From Nitrospiria bacterium (GTDB lineage: Bacteria; Nitrospirota; Nitrospiria; JACQBZ01): DNA of 64,000 nt. Of the stretch, positions 16,012 through 58,338 are shown piece after piece. The stretch's first letter is position 1; every line of letters begins with the position of its first letter. The stretch covers positions 18,230-82,229 of the forward strand of contig DATIYJ010000029.1 of the NCBI GenBank assembly GCA_035517655.1, written 5' to 3'. The notes beneath the pieces are model-generated. The model saw only the letters and a program-made list of their open reading frames with translations, was not told where the DNA came from and did not search any database. The position numbers were made by a program, and so were the translations under genes.

Positions 16012-16656
16012 TCAAGAGGGAGGGATAAATTTGACGACGATTTTCCTGGACATGCCCGTGGGAGGAGGCCGAAGTTTCTTGAGTTCGGAAATGGCTTGAA
16101 GGGCGGACTGATCGAATTTTGGGTTGCCCGACGAATCCAAGAGCTGATATTTCAGGAGCTTCCCTTCATCGTCCACCTGAAGCTGAAAGACAACGGCCAG
16201 AGCCAAGTTCGACGGTAGATCGGGGGGTTGCTTATACAAACGCTGGATTTCGCTTGTTATCAGATCGACATATCCTGAAAACTTCCCTCCCGTTCCATTT
16301 CCGGAGGCAAAGGGATTTCCGAACCCGGGCAGTTGGACCGGCGCGGCGTGTTCCACGGGCGGAGGAGGAGCGCTTTTCGCCTCTTCCACCGGCGGAGGAG
16401 CAGCCTCGGGCTCGGCGGGCGGGGGCGGCGGTGGCTCGGGTTTGGGGGGTTCGGGCTCCGGCGGCTTGGGCTTCGGCGGCTCCGGTTCCCTCACATTCCG
16501 GATGTTGATTTTATAAATCGCCAAGAGTTCCTGTCCGAGCGACGTGGTGGCCAGCCAGACCAGCCCTCCCGCCAAAAGCAGGTGAAAACCGGCCACGATG
16601 ATCAAGGTGGTCCCCAGCCTGCTTTTTTTCTTCTTGAAGCCGGCGTATCCGGGCAC
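16012..16656 (-). CDS. tonB: TonB-family energy transducer (TM anchor, Pro-rich EP/KP spacer, TonB C-terminal domain)
   Basis: 214 aa. Proline-rich spacer EPEPPKPKPPEPEPPKPEPPPPPP. C-terminal ...LLDSSGNPKFDQSALQAISE resembles the TonB_C SSG..LD.AA motif. 4 nt after exbD. Confidence 0.7.
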   Translation of the reverse strand: MPGYAGFKKKKSRLGTTLIIVAGFHLLLAGGLVWLATTSLGQELLAIYKINIRNVREPEPPKPKPPEPEPPKPEPPPPPPAEPEAAPPPVEEAKSAPPPPVEHAAPVQLPGFGNPFASGNGTGGKFSGYVDLITSEIQRLYKQPPDLPSNLALAVVFQLQVDDEGKLLKYQLLDSSGNPKFDQSALQAISELKKLRPPPTGMSRKIVVKFIPPS

Positions 16657-16660
16657 AGGG

Positions 16661-17086
16661 TCAGCTCCCCGGGTCGCTCAGGAGTTTGGTGGCCAGACCC
16701 ACGTCTTCGATGGGCACTTTCTGCAACGCGTCCAATACCGCGACGACGTATTTGTACTCGACGTGCTCGTCCCCGCGGATGATGACGGGGAATTCACTCC
16801 CCTTGGCCTTCTTGAGGTCCCGTAAAATTCCCTCGAGCTCTCCGACCTCCACTTTTTGGTCGTCGAGATATATATCCCCCGTTTTTTTGATCGAAATCGC
16901 CCGCACCTTGTGCTCGTCGATGGTGGTGTCGTTCGGCGAGGATTCCGGAAGCTGCACCTCGATCCCCTGCAGCGCCGCCGTTGTCGTCAGGATGAAGACC
17001 ACCAGTAACACCCAGGCCAGATCGAGCAGCGGCGTGATATTCAACTCGGCCACCGCGCCGTGAGTGGATTTGGAAAATCGTTTCAT
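16661..17086 (-). CDS. exbD: ExbD/TolR biopolymer transport protein
   Basis: 141 aa. AELNITPLLDLAWVLLVVFILTT is the ExbD N-terminal TM signature. Confidence 0.8.
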   Translation of the reverse strand: MKRFSKSTHGAVAELNITPLLDLAWVLLVVFILTTTAALQGIEVQLPESSPNDTTIDEHKVRAISIKKTGDIYLDDQKVEVGELEGILRDLKKAKGSEFPVIIRGDEHVEYKYVVAVLDALQKVPIEDVGLATKLLSDPGS

Positions 17087-17119
17087 AATCGTCCTCCTCC
17101 CCGTTCCACGACGGACTAT

Positions 17120-17902
17120 CTACACGGTTCCCGGGTGCGCGGTGCCGGTCAGGGGATAGGCTCCCTGCTGACCCGTTTGCGAATCCACACCGGGCATCGT
17201 TCCCGTTGAAAGCGGCGCATCCGTAATCTTATGGCTCAAATATTCGGTGGCCAATACATTGTCCAGGTGCGCGGCGAAATTATCCATCTCGATCGTGATC
17301 TCCCGGATCTTGGTGACGAGATAGTTGTAGCAAAAAAGAGAGGGAATCGCGATTGAAAGACCGACCACCGTGTTGATCAGGGCCGCCGATACGCCCGGCG
17401 CCATGGCCGTCAAGCTGGCCTGCTGGCTGCGCGCGATGCCCGCAAAGGTATCCATGACCCCCCAGACCGTTCCGAGCAATCCGACAAAAGGACCCCCGCT
17501 GATGGCCGTCGCCAAAATGATCATGCCCGATTCCAGGTTTACGGTGGTTTCCCCCATCCCGCGCTCGATGGCGATGCGGACCGCGCTCATTCCATGGAGA
17601 GGAATTTTGTTTCCGTATTTGTTCAACTGACGCTTCAGCTCGTCGCAGGCTTCCCGGTAGACATCGAAGAGGGATGATCCTTCCAGCGATTTTTCCTGGG
17701 TGGATATCTCCAGAGCGGAATTTCCGGCGGAGTAAAGAGACAGAAACTGGGCATTCCGTCTCCGCGTCTTTCTCAGCTGCCGGAACTTATTAATGATGAC
17801 CGTCCAGCTCACCAATGAAAAGATCAAAAGGGCGATCATGATGATCTGCCCCTCGAGCGTCGAGTGCTTTAAACTGAAAGCAAGTCCTCCCAAATGTCCC
17901 AT
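17120..17902 (-). CDS. exbB: ExbB/TolQ/MotA-family proton channel
   Basis: 260 aa. Three TM helices. C-terminal MotA_ExbB region (GLLGTVWGVMDTFAGIA...TAMAPGVSAALINTVVGLSIAIP). Confidence 0.8.
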   Translation of the reverse strand: MGHLGGLAFSLKHSTLEGQIIMIALLIFSLVSWTVIINKFRQLRKTRRRNAQFLSLYSAGNSALEISTQEKSLEGSSLFDVYREACDELKRQLNKYGNKIPLHGMSAVRIAIERGMGETTVNLESGMIILATAISGGPFVGLLGTVWGVMDTFAGIARSQQASLTAMAPGVSAALINTVVGLSIAIPSLFCYNYLVTKIREITIEMDNFAAHLDNVLATEYLSHKITDAPLSTGTMPGVDSQTGQQGAYPLTGTAHPGTV

Positions 17903-17991
17903 ATCGATCTCTCCTAAGCGATTCCTGATGGTTTCGGGTTGTCCGGTCGAAGGATCCCGGACTCACAGCCGGGGATGCGCTCGGTTCGGAT

Positions 17992-20900
17992 TCAATTCTG
18001 ATTTTCATCGACATCCACTTCAATGGTGACGCCCTTCTTAAAGCTAAGGGTCTCGAAAACATTCCGACCCCGCTTCCCCTTCCGGCCGTCGTCCCGCTTC
18101 TTGCCGTTATCCGCCTCCTCCTGCGACCCCGCCGTCGCCGCGGCTTCCGTCACGGTATCCTGGGCCGATGCGACCGCCGTCGAGGTCGCCGCCGTCGAGG
18201 TCGTCGAGATCGATCCGGTGGAGCCGGTGAGACCGCCCAAACCGGTGTTCGCCCCCGATGGAACGGTCGGAACCGCGGTCGGCGGGGGGGTTGGAACAAT
18301 GACGGGGGGCGGAGAGGAAACAAGCGTATTCCCGCCCACACTCCCTCCGACCGGTCCCGTAATCGCGGTTTGATCCCCCACGATTTGATCGACGTTGACC
18401 GTCACGACGCCCTGGACCGTCCCGCCCTGAAGGTCCAGGTTTTTCGCGTCGATCGTAATCGTCCTGCCCCGTATGCCGGCGGGCGGGACGATCACGTTTC
18501 CCGAAGGCGCGTCGAGGACGATGTCGCCGAGTTTCAAGTCCTTGATATAATCGGCCTTGATATTTTCGTACTCCGCCGTCGCCGCCTGGACGGCTTTTCC
18601 GACCTGGGTAGTATAGTCCGCGTTGAGTTGATCCACAATTTTGTCGACCATGGCCTGGTACTGTTGAACCTGGGCCTGGTATTCAGCCTTGTATTCGGCC
18701 TTGTATTCCGCTTCGAGGACGGACGTGTCGTGTCCGAGAATCGTTTGTTTTGAGATCTCCGTCTGGAGCGACTCCAGACCGAGTGTCATCGTAAACGTAA
18801 ACGGCGGCACGACCAGAGTCGGAGGAAGAGGAATGACCGGGGCGGGCGGAGGCGGGAAGGGAGGCAGCGGGTTTGGATCCAAGGGACTGAACGTAAATAT
18901 CCCGCTCCCGGGAACCTTGTAATCCAAGTATGTTTTGATGACGTTCCCCTGATCATCCGTCAGTTCATCCACAAAGATGAACTCCACCAGTTCGTCCTTG
19001 CCGCCGCTCCCGGCGTTGATGTTTCCTTCCGTCGAAGTGATATGGATGTCTCCGCCGCCGAACGTGGCCACTCTCGATTTATTGACGTTGACGTCGCCCG
19101 TCGCGGTAATATCGATCTCTCCTCCTCGAAGGGTCATCAAGCCCAGATACGTGCCAAACGGGGAAACCCCGGACGATTGGTTGGTGCCGATGTCGACGCT
19201 ACCGCCGACGGGGCTGTCCGGCCCGTTGAGCCCGTGGACCTGGATCGCCGCTCCGTTGTAGGTGACGATCCGGGACTGGGTCATTTCAAGGTTCCCGCCC
19301 ACCGCGATTTCCAGCAGACCCTTTGGAACAATATCGTCGGTCGGGATGTTGGTGTACCTCTGGTCGATGCCCTGACTATCCGCCAGATTAATGTTCCCGC
19401 CGGCCGACACAAACCCGCCGCCCGTCCCGATGAAATGCAGCCCGCTGACACTCCCCCCGGTCGGCGTCATATCGATGTTCCCCGCGGCGCCGACCGTCGC
19501 CTGGACGCCGTCGGGAACCGAGAGCGTCGCGACGAAATTGGTGATGTCGGCTCCCGATTGCACTGTCACCTGTTTTCGCAGGGTCGGGCTGTAAAAATCC
19601 AGAGTGAGATTATTGATATCCCCGGTCGCCGTCTTGAATGAAACCGGAATCACATCGTTCGAAACATTCGGGGCGGGCGTGTTCAACAGCGGGGTCAGCT
19701 CACCGACCTGCAGGCCGAGCAGGGCGTTCGGATCGGCCGGAACCAGTTTCAGGGTGGGAGGAATGCCATTGACCGGGATGCCCTGAATCGTATCTTGCGC
19801 AAAGAAGTCAAGGCCGCCGGTCGGAGAAGGCCAGAACGTGAGACCGGCTTCGACAAAGATGCTCCCTTGAGGCGCGGTCGCACTGAATGAAGCGGGATAA
19901 TATTGTCTCAACTGAACCAGTTCCGGGCTTTTTTCTCCGTCGGTGACGAGGGGCCGCAGATGGATGTCCCCGTTCGTCGCGGTAAGGCTCACCGCATTGC
20001 TTGGATCGGCCGTTAACGCCCGGTTCCCATAGTTTCCATCGACTCCTTCGGACAGACCCTTGTCCTGGACAAGCCCAAGATAAACCGACTGGCCTGCGGT
20101 CACATCCACCTCCCCCTTCCCGAGCGTCAGGTTTACATAGTTATCGGCCGCGCCGAAATTTCCGCCCACGGTGACATGGGCCTGACCGTTCGACATAAGA
20201 AACCCGCCCAGGAAATCGCCGCCGGCCCTGATCGTCAAGGTACCGGGTACATCCGTGTCCAAACGAAAACCGCTGTATAACAGAAAAGAGTTGTCAAAGG
20301 TGCTCGGCGCGATGATATTCCGGCCCGCCTGAATCGTCATGCTGCCCCCGTATCCCGTCCCCACGGTCGAGTTGGAAAGAACAATATCCCTTCCGGCCGT
20401 CGCCGAGATGTTCCAGGGGGCTCCGCCGTTCAGCCCGGAAGGATCATTGATGATGAGCGTATCGTTGAATCGGAGGTCGTTCCCCGCGGTGAAGGTGATT
20501 TTTCCCCGCGACCCGGGCGCGACGGACCAGCCGCTCAGATCCGTGAGGACGCCCGTCACGTTGATGTCGTGATCGGCCTGGAAATCCAGTTCCGTCAAAC
20601 CGCTGAAGGGGTCGAAGTCATCCTGTGTCACCGTGAGATCATAAGGGTCCAGAAGAAACTTGCCCCCGCCGTATCCCGGAATCGCTCCGCCGCGAACGCT
20701 TCCTCCCAGCGTCAGGTCGTGACCGCTCAGTTCGGCCGAGCCGCCGTCCCCCCCTCCCGCGCCGCCGGAAACATCGATGACGGCGCCCGGATCGAACCGC
20801 GACGTTCCGTGACTTTTGTCCGACGTCGCGACGATCGTGCCCCCGTTTGATACCCCCTCGTCGGATCCTTTCGCCGATGTGACGCTGCCGTCGGACAGAG

Positions 20901-21738
20901 TCAACTCATCGCTTGCAAAAAGTTCGATCCGCCCTTCCTTTTCACGAACGCTGTCGGCCTGGATGAGCCCTTCCTGGTTGATGACGCGGGCATAGATGTT
21001 AACGTTCCCTCCGTCGGCAATCAGGTCTTCGAGGTTGACCGCCTCCCCGGTCGGATTTTTGACCTGGACCAGAAATCCCCGACCGTCCGGGCGGTCCGTC
21101 AGATAGGCCACCGTTCCGGCCGCCAGGACGATCTGTCCCTCCGGGCTCCGGATGAGACCGTTGTTCTCCACGTTCGGCGCGAAAAGATAGACGTACCCTC
21201 CCGAACCGGTTTCGATCGTCCCCGCGTTCTTCACCGATCCGGCGGCGGCCGTTCCGTTGAAGAGATATTTTCCCGCGAGAAAATTCCCATCGCTCAGGTT
21301 CAGAGAAGACGCGACCAAGCCGTTCACGTTGACCTGAGCGCTCGGGCCGAACATCACACCGTTGGGATTAAGAAGAATGACGGAGCCGTTGGCCTGAAGC
21401 GATCCGAAGATCTGGCTCGGATTTGCGTCGAAGATCCGGTTCAACGCGATGGACTGGGCCGTCGGCTGAATGAAGCGGGTGACCTCATTGGGCGCGATAT
21501 TGAACTGCTGCCAGCTCAGAATTGCTTTGGGGGTTGTCTGATTGATGGTCACGACCGAAGTCCCGACGCCTGAAACTGCGGCCCCGCCGTTCACCACGGT
21601 CGGCCCCAAGGGATTCGCAAGGGTCGTTTCGGGAAAAAGCAGGGATGCGCATAGAAGGAAGACGAGGATCCAGTTTTCGGACATGGCCGTACGTCTAAAA
21701 TCCACATTTTGCATTCCCCTCATGGCGAAGACCCCCAC
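17992..21738 (-). CDS. Two-partner-secretion exoprotein (TpsA) with N-terminal TPS/haemagglutination-activity domain and atypical Pro-rich/coiled-coil/basic C-terminus
   Basis: 1248 aa. TPS domain NPLGPTVVNGGAAVSGVGTSVVTINQTTPKAILSWQQFNIAPNEVTRF...NPNGVMFG. Gly/Asn-rich beta-helix body. C-terminal PLPPFPPPPAPVIPLPP, KAEYKAEYKAEYQ, S/T-rich region and a KKRDDGRKGKRGR tail. Confidence 0.8.
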   Translation of the reverse strand: MGVFAMRGMQNVDFRRTAMSENWILVFLLCASLLFPETTLANPLGPTVVNGGAAVSGVGTSVVTINQTTPKAILSWQQFNIAPNEVTRFIQPTAQSIALNRIFDANPSQIFGSLQANGSVILLNPNGVMFGPSAQVNVNGLVASSLNLSDGNFLAGKYLFNGTAAAGSVKNAGTIETGSGGYVYLFAPNVENNGLIRSPEGQIVLAAGTVAYLTDRPDGRGFLVQVKNPTGEAVNLEDLIADGGNVNIYARVINQEGLIQADSVREKEGRIELFASDELTLSDGSVTSAKGSDEGVSNGGTIVATSDKSHGTSRFDPGAVIDVSGGAGGGDGGSAELSGHDLTLGGSVRGGAIPGYGGGKFLLDPYDLTVTQDDFDPFSGLTELDFQADHDINVTGVLTDLSGWSVAPGSRGKITFTAGNDLRFNDTLIINDPSGLNGGAPWNISATAGRDIVLSNSTVGTGYGGSMTIQAGRNIIAPSTFDNSFLLYSGFRLDTDVPGTLTIRAGGDFLGGFLMSNGQAHVTVGGNFGAADNYVNLTLGKGEVDVTAGQSVYLGLVQDKGLSEGVDGNYGNRALTADPSNAVSLTATNGDIHLRPLVTDGEKSPELVQLRQYYPASFSATAPQGSIFVEAGLTFWPSPTGGLDFFAQDTIQGIPVNGIPPTLKLVPADPNALLGLQVGELTPLLNTPAPNVSNDVIPVSFKTATGDINNLTLDFYSPTLRKQVTVQSGADITNFVATLSVPDGVQATVGAAGNIDMTPTGGSVSGLHFIGTGGGFVSAGGNINLADSQGIDQRYTNIPTDDIVPKGLLEIAVGGNLEMTQSRIVTYNGAAIQVHGLNGPDSPVGGSVDIGTNQSSGVSPFGTYLGLMTLRGGEIDITATGDVNVNKSRVATFGGGDIHITSTEGNINAGSGGKDELVEFIFVDELTDDQGNVIKTYLDYKVPGSGIFTFSPLDPNPLPPFPPPPAPVIPLPPTLVVPPFTFTMTLGLESLQTEISKQTILGHDTSVLEAEYKAEYKAEYQAQVQQYQAMVDKIVDQLNADYTTQVGKAVQAATAEYENIKADYIKDLKLGDIVLDAPSGNVIVPPAGIRGRTITIDAKNLDLQGGTVQGVVTVNVDQIVGDQTAITGPVGGSVGGNTLVSSPPPVIVPTPPPTAVPTVPSGANTGLGGLTGSTGSISTTSTAATSTAVASAQDTVTEAAATAGSQEEADNGKKRDDGRKGKRGRNVFETLSFKKGVTIEVDVDENQN

Positions 21739-21741
21739 GTG

Positions 21742-23499
21742 TTAAAACATCACTTTGAGAGAAAAATGAATAAAATAATCCCCGGCCCGGGTAACGGAGG
21801 CATCCTTGAGCGCCCGGGCAAAATCCACGCGTCCCTGAAAATAGTCGGTCACTTTCAACCGAACGCCAAAACCCGCGCCGGCAAGCTGTTGACGGTTGAG
21901 TTGACCGGGAGGGGGCTTCAGGGTACGGAGGTAGGCCTCATCGTAGAATACGGTAAACATCAGGCTCTCCTTATAAGGATTGGGACGGACGATCGGAAAT
22001 GTTGGAGAAAGAAATTCCAATGTCCAGCGGAAGCCATCGTCTCCCAAGGCCTCGCTTTCCAGATAACCGCGCACCGAGTCCACGCCTCCCGCAAAATATT
22101 CTTCGGCCGGTATCAAGGGCCCGTTCGCCCACTGCCCGTCGGCCTTCAAGGACAGAGCGGATCCCTTTGGGAGATCCTGCAACCGCTCCAGACCTCCCTG
22201 AAGGATGAGAAAAGTCCCGGTCGAACCCTCGCGGTTGCCGGGATGGTTGATGCGATCCGATGGATCGCCTCCGAAATCCTCATTGCCTCCCCCCGGCACC
22301 ATCCCCGCCACATATCCTTTGGCCGTTAAGGAAATCTTCATCGTTCCCACATCGTCAGGATAAACCAGCGTATCGTTGATCGAGAGGGGCGCATAATTGA
22401 CCCGATCGCTTACGACCGCCGTCCCCAACCCACCAGGAAAGCTGGCCGTGCTCTTATCCAAATGTTTATAATCAAGACCCAGGATGATTTGCTCGGACAA
22501 TTTTGTGCCGGTATCGAGTGGAATGACATACCGGGTCCCCCCGATGTCGGCATTCCCGGGGATGTTGATATTTCCCGATGAGGTTGACACGGTTCCGGCG
22601 GATAACTGCGACTTGCTTTGGGAGAGTGCGCCATAAAAAACAGCCGTTCGACCGGACTGTTTCAATGGTACGACATAGCTCAATCCGTAAACCCGAACCC
22701 GTCCCCAATCCTGGGGCGTTTGAGTCGTCTGAAAGGTCAGGATCTGGTCCCGGTTAAAGAGGTTCGTATATTGGATCGCGCCGTTCAGGCGCTGTTCCGG
22801 CGTGTCGGGCGTCCCCTGATTGTTCCATTCAATACTTTCATGAAGCGGAAGCCGATCCTTGACCGCCAATTCGAGATCGACGGTTCCGGGTTTCTGCCCG
22901 AGCACGAGAGCCGGTGTGATTTGCAGGTCCGGATTGGAGTTGGCCATATTCAATTCCCTCAGGAACGTCGGCTCATAAATCAAGATGTTCTCTTTTAAAG
23001 AGGGCAGCCTCTCGAAAATCGTCTTCTTGGAAAAATACCGGTTCCCGACCACACGAATCTCGCCCAGCCTGCTTTCGATCACCGTGAGACGAACGACCCC
23101 GTTTTCGATGGTCTGCTGCGGGACGGTCACGATCACGGTGGGGTACCCGGCTTCGCGATAAGCCTTCTCCAGCGCGGAACGGGCCGATTCCACATCCATC
23201 ATGCGCTGTTTCGGCCCCAAATAATTCGAAACGATCGCTTTGACTCTCTCCGAAGGCAGAACCGAATTGCCATCGACCTGATAGTCGGTAACGGCAAAGG
23301 TGATCTCCGCGGGATTTTGGACCGGGGGTGCCTGTGCCGCCGGCTCATTGGGCGCCTGTCCTTGCGTCTCTTGCGGCGGTTTGGGCGCTTCCTGGGGCGC
23401 GGGCGCCGCTTCCCCCGTCCCCTCGTCCGCGCACCATGCCGAATGGGATCCGGAGAAGAGGAAACAAAGCAACCAAATGATCGGCAGGAGACCTTTCAA
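21742..23499 (-). CDS. TpsB transporter (ShlB/FhaC/HecB family, POTRA plus Omp85-type barrel)
   Basis: 585 aa. Signal peptide. Pro/Ala/Gln-rich linker. POTRA region ITFAVTDYQVDGNSVLP...RLTVIESRLGEIRVVGNRYF. C-terminal aromatic residue (…FSLKVMF). Stop is 3 nt before the tpsA start. Confidence 0.85.
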   Translation of the reverse strand: MKGLLPIIWLLCFLFSGSHSAWCADEGTGEAAPAPQEAPKPPQETQGQAPNEPAAQAPPVQNPAEITFAVTDYQVDGNSVLPSERVKAIVSNYLGPKQRMMDVESARSALEKAYREAGYPTVIVTVPQQTIENGVVRLTVIESRLGEIRVVGNRYFSKKTIFERLPSLKENILIYEPTFLRELNMANSNPDLQITPALVLGQKPGTVDLELAVKDRLPLHESIEWNNQGTPDTPEQRLNGAIQYTNLFNRDQILTFQTTQTPQDWGRVRVYGLSYVVPLKQSGRTAVFYGALSQSKSQLSAGTVSTSSGNINIPGNADIGGTRYVIPLDTGTKLSEQIILGLDYKHLDKSTASFPGGLGTAVVSDRVNYAPLSINDTLVYPDDVGTMKISLTAKGYVAGMVPGGGNEDFGGDPSDRINHPGNREGSTGTFLILQGGLERLQDLPKGSALSLKADGQWANGPLIPAEEYFAGGVDSVRGYLESEALGDDGFRWTLEFLSPTFPIVRPNPYKESLMFTVFYDEAYLRTLKPPPGQLNRQQLAGAGFGVRLKVTDYFQGRVDFARALKDASVTRAGDYFIHFSLKVMF

Positions 23500-24050
23500 C
23501 CTCCGGTCTCTCCGTCGGAAGGCCCGGCCTCCGCGCCTGGAAGATTGTCGGTCTCTTGGAGTTCTTTGAGAATCTGCATCGCTTCGGGATCCGCCTCGAC
23601 CACGGGTTTCAGCCAGGCGATCAGGATACGGCGGGTCTCCGGATCCGGTTCGTTTAAAATTCTATTCAAAACCTCTTGCCGTTGAGACCGCTCCTCGTCC
23701 CGGTGATCGGCGGCGTCACCCGGACTGTTCAGATCCGACAGGTACGGGGCATGACGCAAAAGAATCTGTTGGACGGCCGCGGATGGAGGAATCGCGCTGT
23801 CTTGATTCCGGGCATACCCGTCCGGAACGGGACCCGCCGGCCCGGAATTCTGCCGGCCCCCGGCCGATGGTGAAAGCGCGCCGCGTTGATCCTGGGCATA
23901 CCCGCCCGGATTGCGCCCTACTCGGACGGAATCCTGTCGGACGACGGCACCGGAGGGAACTTGTTCATCGGAGCCGCACCCACCCAGGGGGAAAAACAGC
24001 GCGCAGCAGGCCGCCAGCGAAACGGCGGCGAGGATCGTTTTAGTGAACAT
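23496..24050 (-). CDS. Lipoprotein of unknown function, first gene of the tps operon (4-bp overlap with tpsB)
   Basis: 184 aa. Signal plus lipobox ...LFFPLGGCGSDE. Disordered Gly/Pro/Gln-rich middle. Acidic helical C-terminus. Confidence 0.55.
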   Translation of the reverse strand: MFTKTILAAVSLAACCALFFPLGGCGSDEQVPSGAVVRQDSVRVGRNPGGYAQDQRGALSPSAGGRQNSGPAGPVPDGYARNQDSAIPPSAAVQQILLRHAPYLSDLNSPGDAADHRDEERSQRQEVLNRILNEPDPETRRILIAWLKPVVEADPEAMQILKELQETDNLPGAEAGPSDGETGG

Positions 24051-32455: not shown

Positions 32456-34099
32456 CTACGTTGCCCAGGCCCGGACCCCAAGAATCATCAGAGACCAGAG
32501 CACCACCATGCCCAACAGGTTCAACCGATTCGAAAGCTTGACCAGAAGCAGCTCATACGCAAAAAAAAGGACGACAAGTTTCAACACGAGCAGGCCGAGA
32601 AGGATCTCGCCCAGGCGCATATCGGAGAGGCTCGGGATGATCATCGCGACCAGCAAGACGAGAAAATCGAGCGGCGTGACCCGGAAAGAGGCCTCCCGAT
32701 TCAGTTGAATGGCGATCAGGACCGACACCGCCATCAACACGAAGAAAAGGTTCACCGTCGTATGGAGCGAGCGGCCGGCGGCGGGGAAACCCCGCTCGCT
32801 CAGGTAAATCAAAAATGAACCCACCACATACAAGCCCAGACGGATCAGAAGCGGGATCGCCCGGCGGAAGGTCAGGAAGCCGCCGAGTAAAAGGCCGAAC
32901 AACAGGACCGCAAATAATCCGAAATCGGCCGGGATCTGATGGGGGACAAAAGCGCCCAATCCCAAAAAAAGAAGCACCCCCGTCCCCAAAAACCAAAAGG
33001 AGATTTCCGCCAGAAAACGCGACTCCTTGATTCGTCGCATCAGGAGCACCGAAATCGAACGGTCCCGGGCCGGCCGCCCCCAATGGAGTCGACCGCGTGC
33101 CACCAGCGCGGAAAAAACAAAAACAAGCACCGCAAAAAAACCATACACGGCCAACAACTCGGCGTCGTCATGCCAGCGCATCAGGTAGGCCAGGCCGATC
33201 ATCGTCGCCTGAAGGACGTAAATAATCACGACGGCCTCGTGATGGAAAAATCCGACCGATAAAAGCTTGTGGTGGATATGATTTTTATCCGGGAGAAAGG
33301 GGGACCGACCCGCGGCAAGGCGGTGGCCCATCACCATGAGCGTATCCAGCACCGGCAAACCGATAATGAGAAGGGCCAGAACCGGGCTGAACGGCGATCG
33401 AGAGGGATCGCTCAGCATAACGGCGGAAACGCCCGCGGAAAACCCGAGGAATTGACTCCCGCCGTCCCCCATGAAAATCTGCGCCGGATAGGTATTGAAG
33501 CGCAAAAATCCCAGAACGCTGCCGAGCACGGAGAACGAAATGATCATCACAACGGGGTCTCCCGAAAGGTAGGCCAGGTAGGCCAGCCCCGCGAAGCTGA
33601 GGAGACAAAGTCCCCCGGCCAGGCCGTCCAGTCCGTCCGACAGATTGATGGCGTTCGTGATGCCCAGCAACGCCACGACCGTCAACGGGGCGGCCAGCCA
33701 CGGCAGGAAACCCGTCCCATCCAGAAAAGGGATGCTTTTCAACCGGATGCCTCCGTATCCCACCGCGATCAGGATCGCCAACAGTTGCACCAGAAACTTC
33801 GACTTGAAACCGAGACTCGCGCGGTCGTCCCACACCCCGAAAAAAAGAATGACCACCGCGCCCATCAGATACGAAAAAGCCTCCCGATCCATCGGCGCAA
33901 AGATAAGAATCGATGTCAAGGCGCCGGCGGCAAACGCAATCCCCCCCACCCGCACGACCGGCGCGTCGTGCATCTTCCGATCGCCGGGCATGTCCAGTAG
34001 ATGAAAGGGGCCCGCCCATCGCATGAGCGGGGGGATCAACGCGATGCAGATCAGCAACGAACTCACGAAAGCGTAAAAGAGCGTCATTTCCATTTTCAA
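32456..34099 (-). CDS. Polyprenol-phosphate sugar-1-phosphate transferase (WecA/MraY family, GT4 priming enzyme) with extra C-terminal TM domain
   Basis: 547 aa. GVWDD, NAINLSDGLDGLAGG and IFMGDGGSQ motifs. Polytopic membrane protein. Confidence 0.8.
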   Translation of the reverse strand: MKMEMTLFYAFVSSLLICIALIPPLMRWAGPFHLLDMPGDRKMHDAPVVRVGGIAFAAGALTSILIFAPMDREAFSYLMGAVVILFFGVWDDRASLGFKSKFLVQLLAILIAVGYGGIRLKSIPFLDGTGFLPWLAAPLTVVALLGITNAINLSDGLDGLAGGLCLLSFAGLAYLAYLSGDPVVMIISFSVLGSVLGFLRFNTYPAQIFMGDGGSQFLGFSAGVSAVMLSDPSRSPFSPVLALLIIGLPVLDTLMVMGHRLAAGRSPFLPDKNHIHHKLLSVGFFHHEAVVIIYVLQATMIGLAYLMRWHDDAELLAVYGFFAVLVFVFSALVARGRLHWGRPARDRSISVLLMRRIKESRFLAEISFWFLGTGVLLFLGLGAFVPHQIPADFGLFAVLLFGLLLGGFLTFRRAIPLLIRLGLYVVGSFLIYLSERGFPAAGRSLHTTVNLFFVLMAVSVLIAIQLNREASFRVTPLDFLVLLVAMIIPSLSDMRLGEILLGLLVLKLVVLFFAYELLLVKLSNRLNLLGMVVLWSLMILGVRAWAT

Positions 34100-35697
34100 T
34101 GCGGAATGAACCGGCCCAAAAGCGGACGGATCTCCCGCGTAAATTCCGCGAGAAGATGGTCGGCGTCCGAGTCGCTCGTCCCTTTGGCTACGGGAGCCGT
34201 CAAACGGATCAGGGCCCCGTCGGTTCTGTTTTTCGTTAAGGCATCCCAGAAAAGATAGAACTTGACCCGATACTCGTCGGTCAGAATTCTTCCCCGCTGC
34301 TGAAACCAGTAATAAACGACCTGCTTCTCGGTTCCCCTTTGGATGACCGCGCGGTTGACCGTCAAATTTTCCCCCGCCCGCGCCGCATCGATCCTCCTCT
34401 CCTCCAAGGCGGTAATCTCCCAGCCCCCTCCGGGAATGCAGGTCCGGGGGGAATGGGCCGATTGACCTTTCTTCTGCGATCGATAGTAAGCGATGTAAAG
34501 ATTAACGGGCGGACCGACGGGGCCCCGATAGTCCGCGAGGAGGTAGTCGTCAAACCGGAGGGCTTTTACGTATTCCTCCTCCATCGGGTAACTGTTTCCC
34601 GCCCAGCTTCCCAATTTCATCGGGAAGTCGGAAAACGTCGCCCGAGAAGGCGGAATCTCTTCTCCCGACACGAGCTGGGTCGAGGCCATGATCACCGGCA
34701 CGAAAAGAGCCAGGGACACGAGGTAGGCGGGGGAGGACAACAACGAGACCGGCGTCCGGGAAAGCGCGCCCTCTTTTCCGACGGCTTCCGCTTTCACCGG
34801 CGGAGGACCGAACCACTCGGCCAGGGAACGCCGTTTCCCCCGCGCGCCGATCCGGCCGAGGATCCACATTTCACCGAACAGAATCAGAAGACTGCAGACA
34901 AAGAGGAGCCAACCCGAGAAACTGTGGAAAAATCCTTCCGCAGGACCTCGTCCATAATGATCGACCAGCAGACCGGTCACGCCGATTCGAAACCCGTTAA
35001 GAAAAATAGCGATCGGAAAACTCGACAAAAAAAGGAACGCCCGCTTCCAGCGGGTCTCCCGGTAGAGATAGGCGCAGACCAAGGCCAGCGTGGACAGAGG
35101 GAAAAGATATCTCAAACCGCTGCAGGCCTCCGCAACCTGCAGCTGAATCGGTCCGAGGTCGATCACGTTTCCTTCCCGAAAGGCCGTCACTCCCATCAGT
35201 TTTAATATTCCCACCCCGAGTCCGGAAGAGATCAGCTGCAAGCGGGCTGAAAAACCCTGGTAGAGGAAGTCGGGAAGAGGAATCATGGTCAGGAGAAAAA
35301 AAACGGGGAAGGCGATCTCTTTCACGCCGCGTCCCCCGAGGGTCGAGAGCAACAGCCCGATCACAACCAAAAAAAGCGAAAGGTGGACCAGAACATAGAG
35401 GGTGGAAAGTTCCCCGATAAAATAAAGCCCCAAACCGGCCAGCACGAGCGGGAGCCCCCACCAGGTTCCGACCCGGCCCATCGTCCGCAGCCTCTCGCGC
35501 CGTTGCCAGATCAGGTAGAGGGAGATCAGCGGAACAAAGAAGCCGTAGCCGTAATTTTCATCGACGTACCACATTTTCACCATATAAGCGATTCCCTGGT
35601 GATAGATAATCCCCAGCAGGAGAACGGGAAGAGCCGCCATCGGCCAAAACCGGCGCTTGAACAGGATTTCCGCAACGCTGGTCGATACGAATTCCAT
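34096..35697 (-). CDS. Exosortase (Xrt family) fused to C-terminal EpsI-like domain
   Basis: 533 aa. Eight TM helices. Active-site Cys (VAEACSGLRYL) and conserved Arg (FLNGFRIG). C-terminal ~230 aa periplasmic domain resembles EpsI (…AYYRSQKKGQSAHSPRTCIPGGGWEI…). 4-bp overlap with the priming transferase. Confidence 0.85.
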   Translation of the reverse strand: MEFVSTSVAEILFKRRFWPMAALPVLLLGIIYHQGIAYMVKMWYVDENYGYGFFVPLISLYLIWQRRERLRTMGRVGTWWGLPLVLAGLGLYFIGELSTLYVLVHLSLFLVVIGLLLSTLGGRGVKEIAFPVFFLLTMIPLPDFLYQGFSARLQLISSGLGVGILKLMGVTAFREGNVIDLGPIQLQVAEACSGLRYLFPLSTLALVCAYLYRETRWKRAFLFLSSFPIAIFLNGFRIGVTGLLVDHYGRGPAEGFFHSFSGWLLFVCSLLILFGEMWILGRIGARGKRRSLAEWFGPPPVKAEAVGKEGALSRTPVSLLSSPAYLVSLALFVPVIMASTQLVSGEEIPPSRATFSDFPMKLGSWAGNSYPMEEEYVKALRFDDYLLADYRGPVGPPVNLYIAYYRSQKKGQSAHSPRTCIPGGGWEITALEERRIDAARAGENLTVNRAVIQRGTEKQVVYYWFQQRGRILTDEYRVKFYLFWDALTKNRTDGALIRLTAPVAKGTSDSDADHLLAEFTREIRPLLGRFIPH

Positions 35698-54084: not shown

Positions 54085-54792
54085 TCATTTTGAGCGCATC
54101 CTGCCGGTCTTTGTGACCCCTCTTAGACGGACCAGCATCCGAGACAACGAACGATGGTGTAGGAATCCGAACCATCCCGTGAGGCCGGTGACGAAGAGCC
54201 ACGCGGCGCCCGGGAGGGGGACCGAGGATACCGGGCTCACTTGGCCGCTCAGAACGATATCGACGCTGCCTCCGGTCGTCCCCGTGATCTCTCCGGAGAA
54301 AGAGGCGGGAACAGTGCCGGAGAGGCTCCCGCTAAAGAAACCGCCCGGTTGAAATTGAAAGGGATTGCTCGAACCGCCAAGAACATCGCCGCTGCCGGGA
54401 GCATCCGTCACCGATGGATCGGGAATTGAAATCGACGCCGGCGGATAGTAGGATGGGAGGAGATCCATGGCATGCGGTTTCGAAAATAACACATCGGCAA
54501 AGATCGGCCCGAAGTTTTCCTTTTCCCACCGGCCGACCGCGAATCCGTTGGACGAGAACGGGATATAAAACAGACCTTCGCTCATGCTTTCTTGTTTTCG
54601 GAGGAGCGGATCCATCAATTCCTGGGGGGTTTCAAGATCCCCGGCGACCGCGATCCATCCCCATCCGGACGGACTCGGGCGAACCACCTGGACGAGGGAG
54701 GCCTCGGCCATCTGGACCGACAGGATCGATAAAGCCGCCGCGCAGACCAGAAATTTGAGAGGCATACAACAGCGTTTCTTGGCGATGCGCAT
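54085..54792 (-). CDS. PEP-CTERM-type (VPLP variant) exosortase cargo protein with unusually long basic tail
   Basis: Signal peptide. C-terminus ...SSVPLPGAAWLFVTGLTGWFGFLHHRSLSRMLVRLRGVTKTGRMRSK (VPLP motif, TM helix, basic residues). Confidence 0.7.
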   Translation of the reverse strand: MRIAKKRCCMPLKFLVCAAALSILSVQMAEASLVQVVRPSPSGWGWIAVAGDLETPQELMDPLLRKQESMSEGLFYIPFSSNGFAVGRWEKENFGPIFADVLFSKPHAMDLLPSYYPPASISIPDPSVTDAPGSGDVLGGSSNPFQFQPGGFFSGSLSGTVPASFSGEITGTTGGSVDIVLSGQVSPVSSVPLPGAAWLFVTGLTGWFGFLHHRSLSRMLVRLRGVTKTGRMRSK

Positions 54793-54795
54793 TTC

Positions 54796-55395
54796 TTACG
54801 AGAGATCGGTCAAAATCCGACCCGACCCTCCCCAACCCAACAAGGCCAGGGCCAAGATCCCCGTCGCAAAGAGTCCCAAGGCTGCGGGAAGAGGGACGGG
54901 AGCGACTTCCGTGGTGCCCTGCAGGTTCATCGTGAAGGAGGAAACATCCACATAAACATGTTGCCACGAAAGGCTGAATTGCCCGGTATTGGGATCGTAG
55001 GTGCCGGTCGCCAAACCGCCGATGTTCAAGGTCGCATTGATCACGGGTCCCGCAATTCCGGCAAACAGGGACGAGAGGTCCGCCGTCACCGTTGTTCCGG
55101 AGATCTGCGCGGACGGCGGAGCGTACAGTCCGCCGGAGGAAGCGGTGAAGATCGAGAAAGTGTGTCCGTCGATCGGAATCGGCGGAAAGATGTCCGGCGG
55201 AGGCTGGAATTGCCCCATCGCCAGCGTTCCGTTCTGTGTAAAGTTTCCGGAGAGAGAACCGAAGGCCCCTAAATTCAACGAGAGGCTCCCGCCGGTAATG
55301 TCCAACTGCGACACCGTATCCGCGTGAGCGGCGGCGCCGCAGAAATAAAAAAGAAGACCCACAAATGAAACGATCAGTATTTTTTGGAGTTTCAT
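54796..55395 (-). CDS. PEP-CTERM-type (VPLP variant) exosortase cargo protein
   Basis: Start MKLQKILIVSFVGLLFYF. C-terminus ...APVPLPAALGLFATGILALALLGWGGSGR. Confidence 0.75.
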   Translation of the reverse strand: MKLQKILIVSFVGLLFYFCGAAAHADTVSQLDITGGSLSLNLGAFGSLSGNFTQNGTLAMGQFQPPPDIFPPIPIDGHTFSIFTASSGGLYAPPSAQISGTTVTADLSSLFAGIAGPVINATLNIGGLATGTYDPNTGQFSLSWQHVYVDVSSFTMNLQGTTEVAPVPLPAALGLFATGILALALLGWGGSGRILTDLS

Positions 55396-55450
55396 GATGT
55401 CTCCGGAGCAATTCCGCCCGGAGAATTTTTCCCCGGGCGGAATGCATTGT

Positions 55451-56071
55451 TTATCCAAATAGCCTTTGCCAACTCATGCCGACAAAGCCGACCAAACCCG
55501 TAGCGAACATCAACAGGGAGGTCGGAATCGGGACCGGCGCCGGCGCCATGCCGTCATAGGGATTCACGGCAAAGGTCAGCGTTATTCCCGCGTCTTGCAG
55601 AGGATTAAACCCGTTTCCGTTCAAATCCCACTCGATGGCCAGCGTGTTGTAATACGTATAAGCCACTTGTGGATTGACGGAATGAGACGGATCGATCGGA
55701 TTCAAATAAACCTGATTGGCATAATCCGCCGGGTCGGAGATTGTGTAGATCGTACTCGTCTGGTCATTTCGCAACGCAAAATTCACCAAAGAACCGCCTG
55801 AAAACGTGTATTGCCCATACAGGGAAGCGGGACCATTGGGCGCCAGGGCGATCGGTGTAAACCCGCTGCCGTCTACAAACCCAAAGTCATACATCGGAAC
55901 CGGCAGGGTGAGGTCAATATTAAACGTCGCATCCCCGCTGTTATGATCGGTCCCGTCGATCATCAGCACAAGACCCGGGTTGTTCACAACCAAGTCCGCC
56001 GACGCCTGACCCGGCGGGATGCCCCACAGGACGCCTACCAGCAAAGCCAGTAAAGCCATCTTGTTTTTCAT
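55451..56071 (-). CDS. PEP-CTERM-type (VPIP variant) exosortase cargo protein
   Basis: Signal MKNKMALLALLVGVLWG. C-terminus ...APAPVPIPTSLLMFATGLVGFVGMSWQRLFG. Confidence 0.75.
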   Translation of the reverse strand: MKNKMALLALLVGVLWGIPPGQASADLVVNNPGLVLMIDGTDHNSGDATFNIDLTLPVPMYDFGFVDGSGFTPIALAPNGPASLYGQYTFSGGSLVNFALRNDQTSTIYTISDPADYANQVYLNPIDPSHSVNPQVAYTYYNTLAIEWDLNGNGFNPLQDAGITLTFAVNPYDGMAPAPVPIPTSLLMFATGLVGFVGMSWQRLFG

Positions 56072-56158: not shown

Positions 56159-57535
56159 TTACTGAGCGCAGGGATGCGCACCGGCCTTCCACTGCACCGG
56201 GCCCGCATCCGCATTCTTGAAGGTATACATGTCGGAGCCCGCGACCCAGAAGGCCCCGGCCGGCAGAAGCGCGACCGTGGCCGACGATGACGCGTTCGTG
56301 ACAAAATCGGACATCAACGCGGTCTGATCCGCCGAGATGCCCGGGTCCGAGTAGTTCCTTACGTTCAAGCGTTCCCCGGCCCAGTAGAGGTACATACCGC
56401 AACGGACGTTCATCTTATGATCGGGCAGGGAAGCGTCGTTTGCAAAAAGGCCGTCGAGTTTGATCGGGTACGCAGGAGCCGTAACCACGCTCACGTCGGC
56501 ATCTACGTAGCCGATGCCCCTCGGATGAGCCGGCCGGCCCAAGCCCGCGTTTCCTCTCATGCAGTCCTGGACATCCTGAGTGCTTTGTCCGAAGTAGACT
56601 CCATCGGCCGCGAGGGTCAGATTCGTCGACCCGCTTGGGGTCTCGGTGGCGTCTTTCATGACGGTTTGATCAAGCGCCGCCTTGGAACCGGATCCCGCCG
56701 CGCGAAGACAGAGGGTGATCGGCGAGGTCGCATCCGGAGTGCCGGGCGTGGTCACGTCCGTCACCAGACCGACTTGAGACCAGTCGGTGACGTTCCGGCT
56801 GAAGATCGCCTCGATTTCGGTACGGTTCAAGCCCGTCACGGGCACCAGAACTCCGCCGACGTTTTTCTTGACATGCTCTCCCACGATGAACTGCCACGGC
56901 ACGATCGCCGCCTGGTTGCTGGTCAGCATGCTCTGGTCCAACGGCTTCACGACCGTGGTGATCGGCCCGACTTGGCCGAAGGAACTTCCGGCCACGTCCG
57001 CCGCCCCCATGGTCACCGGAAGATCTCCCGCGACGATCGTATTGCAGCCGGTGTATTCATAATACTGTTTGCCGTCGGCGGCCCGGGTCAAGAGGTTCGG
57101 TCCCGATGTGCAGGTGCTCGCAAGGTGATCCAGATAGTGCATGTACGAATGCGCCGTGTCGGATGTCGGATTCTGAAGTTTCAGGATCCCATCGGAAGAG
57201 CCCGTGGCCGAGTACCGGATGATGGTCGGCACGCCGGCCCGCGATCCGGTCCAGACATGGAGTTTGCCGGATGTGATGACCGGGCTTGCAATGTCACCGT
57301 TTACGTAATGAATCGGAAGATTTGGGGCCTGGTCCAGCAGGTTTAATGGAACCTGCGTCATGAACGGTGTGGCCGCGGAAGATCCGCCGGCATTTAACGC
57401 AACGCACGAGGTGGGTTGCGGTCCTGTACATTGCTCGACCTGGGCCGACGCCGGCGAGGCGTTCATCCAAAGAAGGCCGGCGAGCAAGCCGCCTACAACG
57501 GCCAGTTTGTTCAATTTCATCGGTTTCATCTGCAT
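56159..57535 (-). CDS. Secreted protein with PstS-like (periplasmic phosphate-binding, PBP-like_2) domain, embedded among cargo genes
   Basis: 458 aa. Signal peptide. NAGGSSAATPF and ATGSSDGILKL resemble PstS GSS/GSG phosphate-binding loops. No PEP-CTERM tail. Confidence 0.5.
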   Translation of the reverse strand: MQMKPMKLNKLAVVGGLLAGLLWMNASPASAQVEQCTGPQPTSCVALNAGGSSAATPFMTQVPLNLLDQAPNLPIHYVNGDIASPVITSGKLHVWTGSRAGVPTIIRYSATGSSDGILKLQNPTSDTAHSYMHYLDHLASTCTSGPNLLTRAADGKQYYEYTGCNTIVAGDLPVTMGAADVAGSSFGQVGPITTVVKPLDQSMLTSNQAAIVPWQFIVGEHVKKNVGGVLVPVTGLNRTEIEAIFSRNVTDWSQVGLVTDVTTPGTPDATSPITLCLRAAGSGSKAALDQTVMKDATETPSGSTNLTLAADGVYFGQSTQDVQDCMRGNAGLGRPAHPRGIGYVDADVSVVTAPAYPIKLDGLFANDASLPDHKMNVRCGMYLYWAGERLNVRNYSDPGISADQTALMSDFVTNASSSATVALLPAGAFWVAGSDMYTFKNADAGPVQWKAGAHPCAQ

Positions 57536-57597: not shown

Positions 57598-58338
57598 TTA
57601 GACGGACATCAGATTGCGACGGGCCACACCCACCAGCCCGACCAAACCCGTGCCGAACAACACCATGGCGGCCGGGATCGGCACCGGAGCAATCGCATTC
57701 CCGGAGATCGTAAGCAAGCCGCCCGCCGTCAACGTCGCATGTCCCAGCTGGGCGATGGCATCGGAAGAATAATCCGCCGAAATAATGCCCAAAGTGCCCC
57801 CGAGCCCCGTCTGCATGGAGACCGGGAAACTGCCGGCCAGCGTGCCGCTCGTACCGAAATTGCTTGTGAACGAATTGGGGTCCGAAGCGGGAAGAAGCTT
57901 CGAGGAAAGTCCGTCTCCTGAACTGAGCGCGGCCCAAACGGCGTCCGTGTTCCAGGCGTTCTGCGGAGCCACTTGCGACAACTGGGCCGCCGTGTAGGCG
58001 CTGGCGTCCTGGCTCGACCCGGCCACAAGATAGGTCGGATCACCCGTGCTCGGATTATAGTAAAAACCGATCAAGGCCCAAGCCGGAGAATTCGTCCCTT
58101 GTATCGCGGACATGGTGGAAGAATCGATGGTAAAGTTCGTCGACGCTCCCGGTGTGAGCAACGGAGTGGCCGCGCCGATATTGTCGATGAACTCGGTGTT
58201 ATTGCCGAAGACGGCCAAGACCAGGTCGCCGTTATTGATATCAACGGCGAGGGCTTTTCCGTTAAAGCCCGCAACGAACATGACAGCCAAGGTAAAAATC
58301 CCGAGGACTGTTTGTTTCAACTTCGTTTTGTAATTCAT
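57598..58338 (-). CDS. PEP-CTERM-type (VPIP variant) exosortase cargo protein
   Basis: Signal MNYKTKLKQTVLGIFTLAVMFVAG. C-terminus ...IAPVPIPAAMVLFGTGLVGLVGVARRNLMSV. RBS aaggag. Confidence 0.75.
   Translation of the reverse strand: MNYKTKLKQTVLGIFTLAVMFVAGFNGKALAVDINNGDLVLAVFGNNTEFIDNIGAATPLLTPGASTNFTIDSSTMSAIQGTNSPAWALIGFYYNPSTGDPTYLVAGSSQDASAYTAAQLSQVAPQNAWNTDAVWAALSSGDGLSSKLLPASDPNSFTSNFGTSGTLAGSFPVSMQTGLGGTLGIISADYSSDAIAQLGHATLTAGGLLTISGNAIAPVPIPAAMVLFGTGLVGLVGVARRNLMSV

Follow-up and report, generated by a model that had tools for sequence, protein, structure and literature searches.

We analysed a 64,000-nucleotide stretch of Nitrospiria bacterium DNA (contig DATIYJ010000029.1; hereafter the window) that encodes TpsA, the passenger of a two-partner secretion (TPS) system, in a cluster with its transporter TpsB and with ExbB-, ExbD- and TonB-like proteins, and we asked what the last ~350 residues of TpsA are. 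An earlier note, made from the letters of the window alone, had described this region as a non-canonical, idiosyncratic end; we find that it is a conserved module at the C terminus of a DUF3739-type subfamily of TpsAs, which spans the Nitrospirota and is strictly linked to a TonB motor. The cluster comprises the following genes (coordinates are those of the window; aa, amino acids; nt, nucleotides; ORF, open reading frame).

21742..23499, minus strand: tpsB, an Omp85-type transporter (POTRA_2, E 1.7e-18; ShlB, E 3.9e-15), whose stop lies 3 nt before the tpsA start
17992..21738, minus strand: tpsA, the TpsA passenger, 1248 aa from the longest start, ORF intact
17120..17902, minus strand: an exbB/tolQ-like proton-channel subunit (MotA_ExbB, E 7e-29), 89 nt downstream of tpsA, with GGAG preceding the ATG
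16661..17086, minus strand: an exbD/tolR-like subunit (PF02472, E 1e-26), with a transmembrane Asp in LLDLAWVLL
16012..16656, minus strand: a tonB/tolA-like transducer (TonB_2 and TonB_C) with a His-bearing transmembrane anchor, an EP/KP-rich spacer and a conserved C-terminal domain
23496..24050, minus strand: a small lipoprotein ORF, 184 aa, lipobox LGGC, overlapping the tpsB start by 4 nt, with no Pfam hit

The window protein carries a TPS domain (PF05860, aa 49–286, E 1.2e-33, together with a TIGR01901 match in NCBIfam, E 1.6e-23) and an NPNG motif at aa 124, and its gene adjoins tpsB, which by sequence identifies it as a genuine TpsA of type Vb secretion. Its true start is probably Met9, giving 1240 aa, as in the gene call on a near-identical contig (99.9% aa identity). 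Its stop codon is genuine, because homologues end 3–21 residues (median 6) beyond the same terminal motif. The protein had been called small, and so it is among TpsAs in general; within its own subfamily, where homologues span 1172–1723 aa, its length is ordinary. Its sole Cys is residue 30, within the signal peptide.

The five genes from tpsB to tonB are separated by gaps of 3, 89, 33 and 4 nt, and no terminator-like site was seen in the tpsA-exbB gap. TpsB has the VRGY loop motif and a C-terminal Phe. As judged from its residues, the ExbB-ExbD-TonB motor looks functional: the transmembrane His of TonB, the transmembrane Asp of ExbD and the GTVWG motif of ExbB are all intact. The ExbB-like protein scores below both the TolQ and the ExbB equivalog cut-offs of NCBIfam, and the TonB C-terminal domain gives a weak match to P. 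aeruginosa TolA domain III (1lr0/6s3w, E 0.02). It is possible that the lipoprotein ORF, whose homologue was found only in the closest relative, is the first gene of the operon; the gene after tonB is a convergent P-type ATPase gene.

To describe the C-terminal region we combined its sequence with an AlphaFold2 (AF2) model of the TpsA C-terminal fragment, run with a homologue alignment (A1) and read by its per-residue confidence (pLDDT, predicted local distance difference test). Tandem repeats were scored with Tandem Repeats Finder (TRF). The region contains the following elements.

18883..19056, minus strand: DUF3739 (PF12545) segment, aa 895–952, conserved in A1 and terminating in the conserved VPGSGIFTF (aa 942–950)
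18820..18870, minus strand: Pro-rich loop PLPPFPPPPAPVIPLPP, aa 957–973, predicted to be disordered (pLDDT <50)
18538..18783, minus strand: helical segment, aa 986–1067, predicted as a short helix (aa 986–1000) and a long helix (aa 1006–1067), pLDDT 67–84
18674..18708, minus strand: 12-nt tandem repeat, 2.9 copies, 91% matches, TRF score 56, encoding EAEY-KAEY-KAEY
18337..18522, minus strand: terminal beta block, aa 1073–1134, invariant core GNVIVPPAGIRGR..LDLQGG, predicted strands with pLDDT 73–83
17995..18318, minus strand: disordered C-terminal tail, aa 1141–1248, 108 residues, pLDDT 21–36
18064..18102, minus strand: basic patch KKRDDGRKGKRGR, aa 1213–1225
18010..18051, minus strand: extreme C-terminal motif TLSFKKGVTIEVDV, a predicted two-strand hairpin

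The DUF3739 segment scores 29.4 bits (cut-off 27) with the C-terminal 349 aa scanned alone and 23.4 bits, below the gathering cut-off, in a full-length scan. Scanned alone, the C-terminal 349 aa thus place TpsA by sequence in the DUF3739 filamentous-haemagglutinin family, and homologues of the TpsA C terminus have precomputed PF12545 matches. Downstream of it, every string quoted in the earlier note is present (PLPPFPPPPAPVIPLPP, EAEYKAEYKAEY, PPPVIVPTPPPTAVPTVP, a Ser/Thr-rich stretch and KKRDDGRKGKRGR), although several had been read differently from what we find. The 12-nt array reported there exists; the peptide that it encodes is EAEY-KAEY-KAEY and not three copies of KAEY, with EAEYKAEYKAEY (aa 1009–1020, nt 18679–18714) as the repeat-encoded stretch. 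For the putative coiled coil of the note, the model gives a single long helix (the two helices are fragment residues 87–101 and 107–168). Across the 64-kb window, only five arrays score at least 50 in TRF; the TpsA tail holds two of these, and a third is in the TonB gene, in its proline spacer. Besides the 12-nt repeat there are two short tandem duplications with 15-nt units, at 18174–18203 in the Ser/Thr-rich part of the TpsA tail and at 16453–16481 in the EP/KP spacer of TonB.

Conservation around the beta block begins slightly upstream of it at LKLGD (aa 1068–1106 correspond to nt 18421–18537), and the invariant columns of A1 in this block are P186, P187, G189, I190, R191, G192, G206 and G207. 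The tail that follows runs in order through a Pro-rich linker (PPPVIVPTPPPTAVPTVP, aa 1143–1160), a stretch rich in Ser, Thr, Ala and Gly, the mixed-charge/basic patch and the terminal hairpin motif. The patch had been taken for the end of the protein, a polybasic tail; 23 more residues (NVFETLSFKKGVTIEVDVDENQN) come after it, and these contain the best-conserved motif of the entire tail, which the earlier note had missed.

We then looked for relatives of the region. The last 349 aa of TpsA as a query returned 22 homologues, and a profile search of 1.8 billion representatives clustered at 50% identity found ~60 representative clusters that match the whole C-terminal module at E<=1e-30, in proteins of 1188–1696 aa. 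Beyond these clusters, scores fall sharply to proteins that match in the DUF3739 part only, many of them 3200–3500 aa long. A genome scan with the peptide pattern [VI][IV][VI]PPAGIRG gave 17 loci, of which 16 are in isolates or metagenome-assembled genomes of Nitrospira or other Nitrospirota and one is in a genome bin assigned to Planctomycetales. Three elements are conserved throughout the ~60 clusters: the DUF3739 segment, the terminal beta block, and a ~100-aa disordered tether, rich in Ser, Thr, Ala, Gly and Pro, with the terminal motif at its end.

The terminal motif is found in all complete tails. It forms a predicted beta-hairpin of 14–16 residues of the form S-V-R-V-K-R-G-V-x-I-x-V-D-V, and among 63 unique tails its consensus is S-[LVI]-R-[VLI]-[KR]-x-G-V-x-I-[QEK]-V-[DE]-[VT], with the V-x-I-x-V positions kept in 62, 62 and 60 of the 63, respectively. 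The linker preceding it is 59–96 aa of low-complexity sequence (57–80% Ser, Thr, Ala, Gly, Pro or Gln) that varies across the family, and the median Cys count after PPAGIRG is 0.

The features that first draw the eye behave differently. Relatives with 68–71% full-length identity (L028–L034) lack a ~15-residue block at the Pro-rich loop (a 15-column gap that begins within the loop, so that the second half of PLPPFPPPPAPVIPLPP lies inside a lineage-specific insertion), a 30–37-aa segment containing the EAEY-KAEY-KAEY repeat, and the PPPVIV linker (PPPVIVPTPPPTAVPTV). These three missing segments account for most of the difference between the 1248 aa of the window protein and the 1172–1183 aa of these relatives. 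The helical segment, shorter by 30–37 aa in close relatives, is also shorter in Nitrospira, and we did not see it when reading the sequences of distant DUF3739 TpsAs. By sequence, then, the KAEY repeat, the extra prolines and the PPPVIV linker are lineage-specific, low-complexity insertions with no family-wide role. The earlier note had also proposed a check for variation in repeat length among related strains; the sole near-identical strain available (L026) carries the same three copies and a homologue with 73% identity (P0001) has a diverged sequence (EADFKAQYSAEY) of the same length, and there is therefore no evidence of repeat-length polymorphism.

The exbB-exbD-tonB neighbourhood, too, is constant. 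Using tblastn with the window proteins, we found the same gene order, tpsB-tpsA-exbB-exbD-tonB, in 16 of the 16 TpsA-anchored loci with enough downstream flank; one locus (L008) is a variant with two inserted genes and tpsB after tpsA, another (L014) breaks off in the same variant arrangement, and three (L005, L013 and L019) are too short for the order to be judged. Across these loci identities to the window are 27–39% for the TpsA C terminus, ~64% for ExbB, ~58% for ExbD and ~45% for TonB. Approached from the other side with four different TonB queries, tpsA lies directly upstream of exbB-exbD-tonB in all nine TonB-anchored loci with upstream sequence, so that the linkage of the subfamily to the TonB motor is strict, at 25 of 25 loci. 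All listed matches of the TonB homologue search that bear an organism name are Nitrospirota, and the subfamily is found in most Nitrospira genome loci sampled. One TonB-anchored locus (L035) encodes a TonB assigned by NCBI to Ca. Nitrospira inopinata, and its TpsA ends in ...SIRMGRGVVIQVDVKPAAQ. Within 6–10 kb of the Pfam-annotated subfamily loci (L001–L003, L026 and L028–L035) there is no Plug or TonB_dep_Rec gene.

The C terminus belongs to none of the classes of domain or signal that we searched for. The earlier note had recognised no contact-dependent inhibition (CDI) toxin, hemolysin or known adhesin domain, and the searches bear this out: Pfam and NCBIfam scans of TpsA give no family other than TPS and DUF3739, a PDB sequence-profile search with the C-terminal profile finds no relative, and Foldseek against PDB with the C-terminal model finds no match. 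We rejected a CdiA/CDI toxin organisation (the sole VENN, at aa 190, is inside the TPS domain, no Pfam toxin family matches and the downstream gene is exbB), an exosortase substrate with a PEP-CTERM signal (no PEP or VPLPA string, and a Kyte-Doolittle maximum of 0.86 for a 19-residue window in the last 120 aa), a LapG substrate of the CdrA/LapA type (no TAAG anywhere in TpsA), a disulfide anchor of the HMW1/HxuA type (no Cys pair in the last ~20–70 residues of a Cys-free tail) and an outer-membrane-protein beta-signal (the tails end in polar residues, DENQN or KPQ-rich, not in aromatic ones, and it is TpsB that ends ...KVMF). A TonB box in TpsB was likewise rejected: TpsB N-termini in the family are variable stretches rich in Pro, Ala and Glu, with no conserved TonB-box-like motif.

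The functional signal of the tail is the terminal hairpin on its tether together with the invariant TonB-motor neighbourhood, not the repeats and prolines. The ligands of TonB and TolA are short strands within disordered parts of partner proteins, bound by beta-augmentation, as in TonB boxes, the TolB N terminus and colicin translocation domains. The tail resembles such ligands in that a conserved V-x-I-x-V strand ends a disordered segment and is encoded beside a TonB/TolA-type protein; it differs from them in that the motif stands at the C terminus of a secreted passenger and not at the N terminus of a transporter or toxin. We propose that TpsA, as a TPS substrate, would cross the outer membrane via TpsB with its C terminus as the last part to leave the periplasm, that the disordered tether would remain threaded through the TpsB pore with the hairpin still periplasmic, and that the hairpin would be the ligand that docks the dedicated TonB/TolA-like protein's C-terminal domain. 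Docked on TonB, it would thus couple the surface fibre to a proton-motive-force motor, for retention, tension or the triggering of release.

What we observe in this proposal is how the module is built, how well it is conserved, the predicted disorder of the tether and the linkage of the genes. That the TpsA tail is retained in the periplasm, which we argue by analogy, seems to us slightly favoured over its absence there. Docking of TonB by the hairpin is a possible but doubtful step, and the reading as a whole, with a conserved module, a tether in TpsB and a hairpin on TonB, is tentative and comes somewhat short of an even chance. The constant TonB linkage hints that a supposedly self-powered secretion is coupled to the energy of the cell.

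Several observations count against this coupling. TPS secretion is generally held to be energy-independent. The hairpin motif does not fit the classical TonB-box consensus (acidic-T-hydrophobic-x-V-x-A), the likeness being confined to an alternating beta-branched strand. A single-sequence AF2 chimera of a TonB C-terminal domain and the TpsA tail models the motif as a hairpin, with strands at 159–163 and 169–175, but its mean pLDDT of 42 is too low to be informative. The genes could also be linked because they are co-regulated with a TonB client whose gene lies elsewhere. Finally, across the wider DUF3739 family, judged from five loci, the tail motif does not clearly go together with a nearby ExbBD. 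The distant DUF3739 TpsAs, most of which are very large, likewise close with a low-complexity linker and then a strand motif, h-x-V-x-V-h-G-F/Y, in many cases accompanied by a Cys pair (for example WLDVFVxGLGEExC..C, xIAVEVVGFD and SRVTVxLP). In two of the five loci (L021 and L023), an ExbB fused to DUF2341-LamG (Laminin_G), ExbD, TonB_2 and Porin_5 adjoin tpsA; in the other three (L022, L024 and L025), no ExbBD lies within 10 kb; the tails are alike in both groups. Because similar terminal strands occur with or without ExbBD-TonB, the strand could be a general TpsB-interacting element. Covariation between the hairpin and the TonB C-terminal domain, inspected by eye over ~15 pairs, does not inform the question, both being too conserved. 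Among the Cys-pair tails, those of some distant DUF3739 TpsAs of up to ~3500 aa (P0087, P0122, P0130 and similar ones; one is from Methyloterricola oryzae) resemble the HMW1/HxuA anchors.

The strongest alternative takes up the point that the strand could be a general TpsB-interacting element: tether and hairpin would bind the POTRA domains or barrel lumen of TpsB as an anchor or plug, and ExbBD-TonB would act elsewhere, in TpsB gating, on a distant TonB-dependent transporter or in envelope tethering. Besides the strands that persist regardless of nearby ExbBD-TonB, it can draw on the window TpsB, whose N terminus is Pro-rich and variable and has no obvious H1 plug helix (this is less clear for relatives), so that the tail could occupy the pore, and on precedent, since HMW1 and HxuA have a C-terminal anchor that is kept in the periplasm and locked in the TpsB pore (PMC5422565). 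Yet it does not account for the linkage, in 25 of 25 loci, to a TonB of a dedicated lineage, in which every named member is from Nitrospirota; the annotated flanks offer no alternative TonB client, and the tail has no Cys pair for a globular stopper. We regard it as rather unlikely.

A second alternative is that the tail, or the whole module after the shaft, is a miniature FhaB prodomain that would stay inside during secretion, control folding or secretion and then be removed by a protease. The FhaB prodomain includes a proline-rich region and a conserved extreme C terminus. In work by Noel in 2012 it is reported to stay intracellular. In two loci (L032 and L033, 1–1172 in each), moreover, a gene for a 1006-aa subtilisin-like Peptidase_S8 stands directly upstream of tpsA, in the usual place of tpsB; by analogy its product may be a maturation protease like SphB1, the subtilisin-type protease of FhaB. 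This explanation is nonetheless highly unlikely: the tail has ~100 aa where the FhaB prodomain has ~1200 aa, the variable linker shows no conserved motif for cleavage, the window and most other loci have no protease gene beside the cluster, and the TonB linkage is left unexplained.

Least supported, and barely credible in our view, is the idea of the earlier note that an extracellular polybasic patch binds polyanions (exopolysaccharide, EPS, or nucleic acid) from the adjacent polysaccharide locus: the KGKRxR core of the patch is kept in the window protein and its close sub-clade only, the cluster abuts an EPS locus in the window and in its closest relative (L001), and one distant DUF3739 TpsA also neighbours an exosortase, but the patch is of mixed charge (8 Lys/Arg versus 6 Asp/Glu), net charge over the 25 residues ahead of the terminal motif is no more than +2 at the median (range −3 to +5; 64 non-redundant tails), no EPS locus flanks the cluster in the Nitrospira loci or in the 68–71% identical relatives, and it is the hairpin beyond the patch, rather than the patch itself, that is conserved.

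The closest described system to the one in the window is that of P. aeruginosa, pdtA-phdA-pdtB-exbB2-exbD2-tonB4 (PA0690-PA0695), in which the sigma factor VreI controls the TPS genes together with those for ExbBD/TonB when phosphate is limiting; TPS genes are again associated with exbBD in several proteobacteria, and the Pdt TonB system has been termed 'still uncharacterized' (PMC2729926; PMC7035377). Shared with it is a tpsA/tpsB pair clustered with a dedicated exbB-exbD-tonB (16012–23499 in the window, and 25 related loci). Two of the distant DUF3739 TpsAs (3200–3500 aa; L021 and L023) show a PA0693-PA0696-like layout of ExbB, ExbD, TonB_2 and porin, and phosphate-related neighbours (PBP_like_2 and Porin_O_P) in Nitrospira loci echo the phosphate-starvation control of Pdt. 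The differences are several: the order is tpsB-tpsA in Nitrospirota and pdtA-phdA-pdtB in P. aeruginosa; the window TpsA is ~3-fold smaller; next to the window cluster there is neither a vreAIR sigma-factor system nor an Hxc secretion system nor a porin gene, the PA0696-like porin after tonB being represented (as Porin_5 or Porin_O_P) in other loci only; and the tails of the large proteobacterial relatives carry the h-x-V-x-V-h-G-F/Y motif, often with the Cys pair. A profile search with the distant DUF3739 tails returned no P. aeruginosa protein among its best 120 matches, which were mostly metagenome fragments; the likeness to Pdt described here is one of layout.

HMW1 and HxuA share with the window protein a short C-terminal element after the passenger, proposed to be periplasmic, with the chain running through TpsB and the protein cell-bound (PMC5422565); their anchors are a disulfide-bonded loop, whereas the window tail is Cys-free, has a much longer disordered linker and is TonB-linked. 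The FhaB prodomain and the LapG-cleaved tail of CdrA, the latter also periplasmic (PMC5422565), are likewise TpsA C-terminal regions that are kept in the periplasm and regulate maturation or release. The window tail is far smaller than the FhaB prodomain and has no LapG site, and no LapG or LapD homologue was seen among the genes immediately flanking the cluster. The window encodes a TpsA with a putative anchor at its C terminus, inside a TPS cluster that is tied to ExbBD-TonB, and extends a kind of system already known. Our literature searches turned up no account of the C-terminal motif, nor of how TonB might be connected mechanistically with two-partner secretion.

Beyond the cluster, the window contains an exosortase/PEP-CTERM EPS locus (24115–53734, minus strand), which encodes an ATPase with AAA_22 and TPR domains, an AAA_31 kinase-like protein, Wzz/GNVR, Poly_export, an 819-aa TPR protein, a GT4 sugar transferase, a heparinase II/III and an Exosortase_EpsH fused to DUF3485 (34096–35697). 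Among the relatives checked, this neighbourhood is common only to the closest, L001. A second, independent adjacency of DUF3739 and exosortase occurs in L024 (4954–5919), where a 236-aa ORF and then Exosortase_EpsH come after the gene for a distant DUF3739 TpsA. Four secreted proteins encoded in the window (54085–54792, 54796–55458, 55451–56071 and 57598–58338, minus strand) end in VP(I/L)PAA, a hydrophobic helix and RR; by this signal, which is VPLPA/PEP-CTERM-like, they are probably substrates of the neighbouring exosortase.

The last of these CTERM proteins and a PBP_like_2 protein (56159–57535, minus strand) are homologues of the two genes that directly follow tonB in at least 13 Nitrospira loci, including L007 (13515–15687) and L008 (7080–9548), and on sequence the two pairs are likely orthologous. 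The ~32-kb EPS locus that lies between this pair and the TPS cluster in the window suggests an insertion or rearrangement. In the Ca. N. inopinata TonB locus (L035, 10120–17736), the cluster is followed by a CTERM protein, a PBP_like_2 protein, Porin_O_P, a second PBP_like_2 protein and a Trans_reg_C regulator; the PBP_like_2 protein after tonB in Nitrospira is PstS-like, and Porin_O_P belongs to the N. inopinata-type locus. Among Nitrospira loci, a T2SSC-like gene (PF11356) is conserved close to the cluster, upstream of tpsB, in L003, L007–L012, L015–L018 and L020 (13506–14690 in L008), with OMP_b-brl and CYTH/CHAD genes beside it in the annotated loci L002/L003; we detected no homologue of it in the window.

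Type V secretion is the textbook case of a self-powered system, with no energy input at the outer membrane. In its boldest form, which we think distinctly unlikely, our proposal would describe an energy-coupled type Vb system in which ExbB-ExbD-TonB grips the periplasmic hairpin and pulls the surface fibre through TpsB by the proton-motive force. If so, the pull might draw the fibre back, keep it taut, set off its release or bring bound cargo inward; in view of the PstS-like and OprO/P-like genes nearby in Nitrospira, that cargo may be material that contains phosphate. It would then be the first two-partner secretion system with a mechanical drive, and the orphan ExbB2-ExbD2-TonB4 of P. aeruginosa would have an explanation.

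Even if the linkage were mere co-regulation, a hypothetical tail would be re-annotated as a conserved anchor module. A near-invariant strand on a pore-length disordered tether, encoded with its own motor, offers a testable candidate for a motor that engages two-partner secretion. The family appears widespread in Nitrospira, including the locus whose TonB NCBI assigns to the comammox organism Ca. N. inopinata. Nitrifying biofilms would therefore be affected by any part that it plays in surface attachment, in aggregation or in the scavenging of phosphate.

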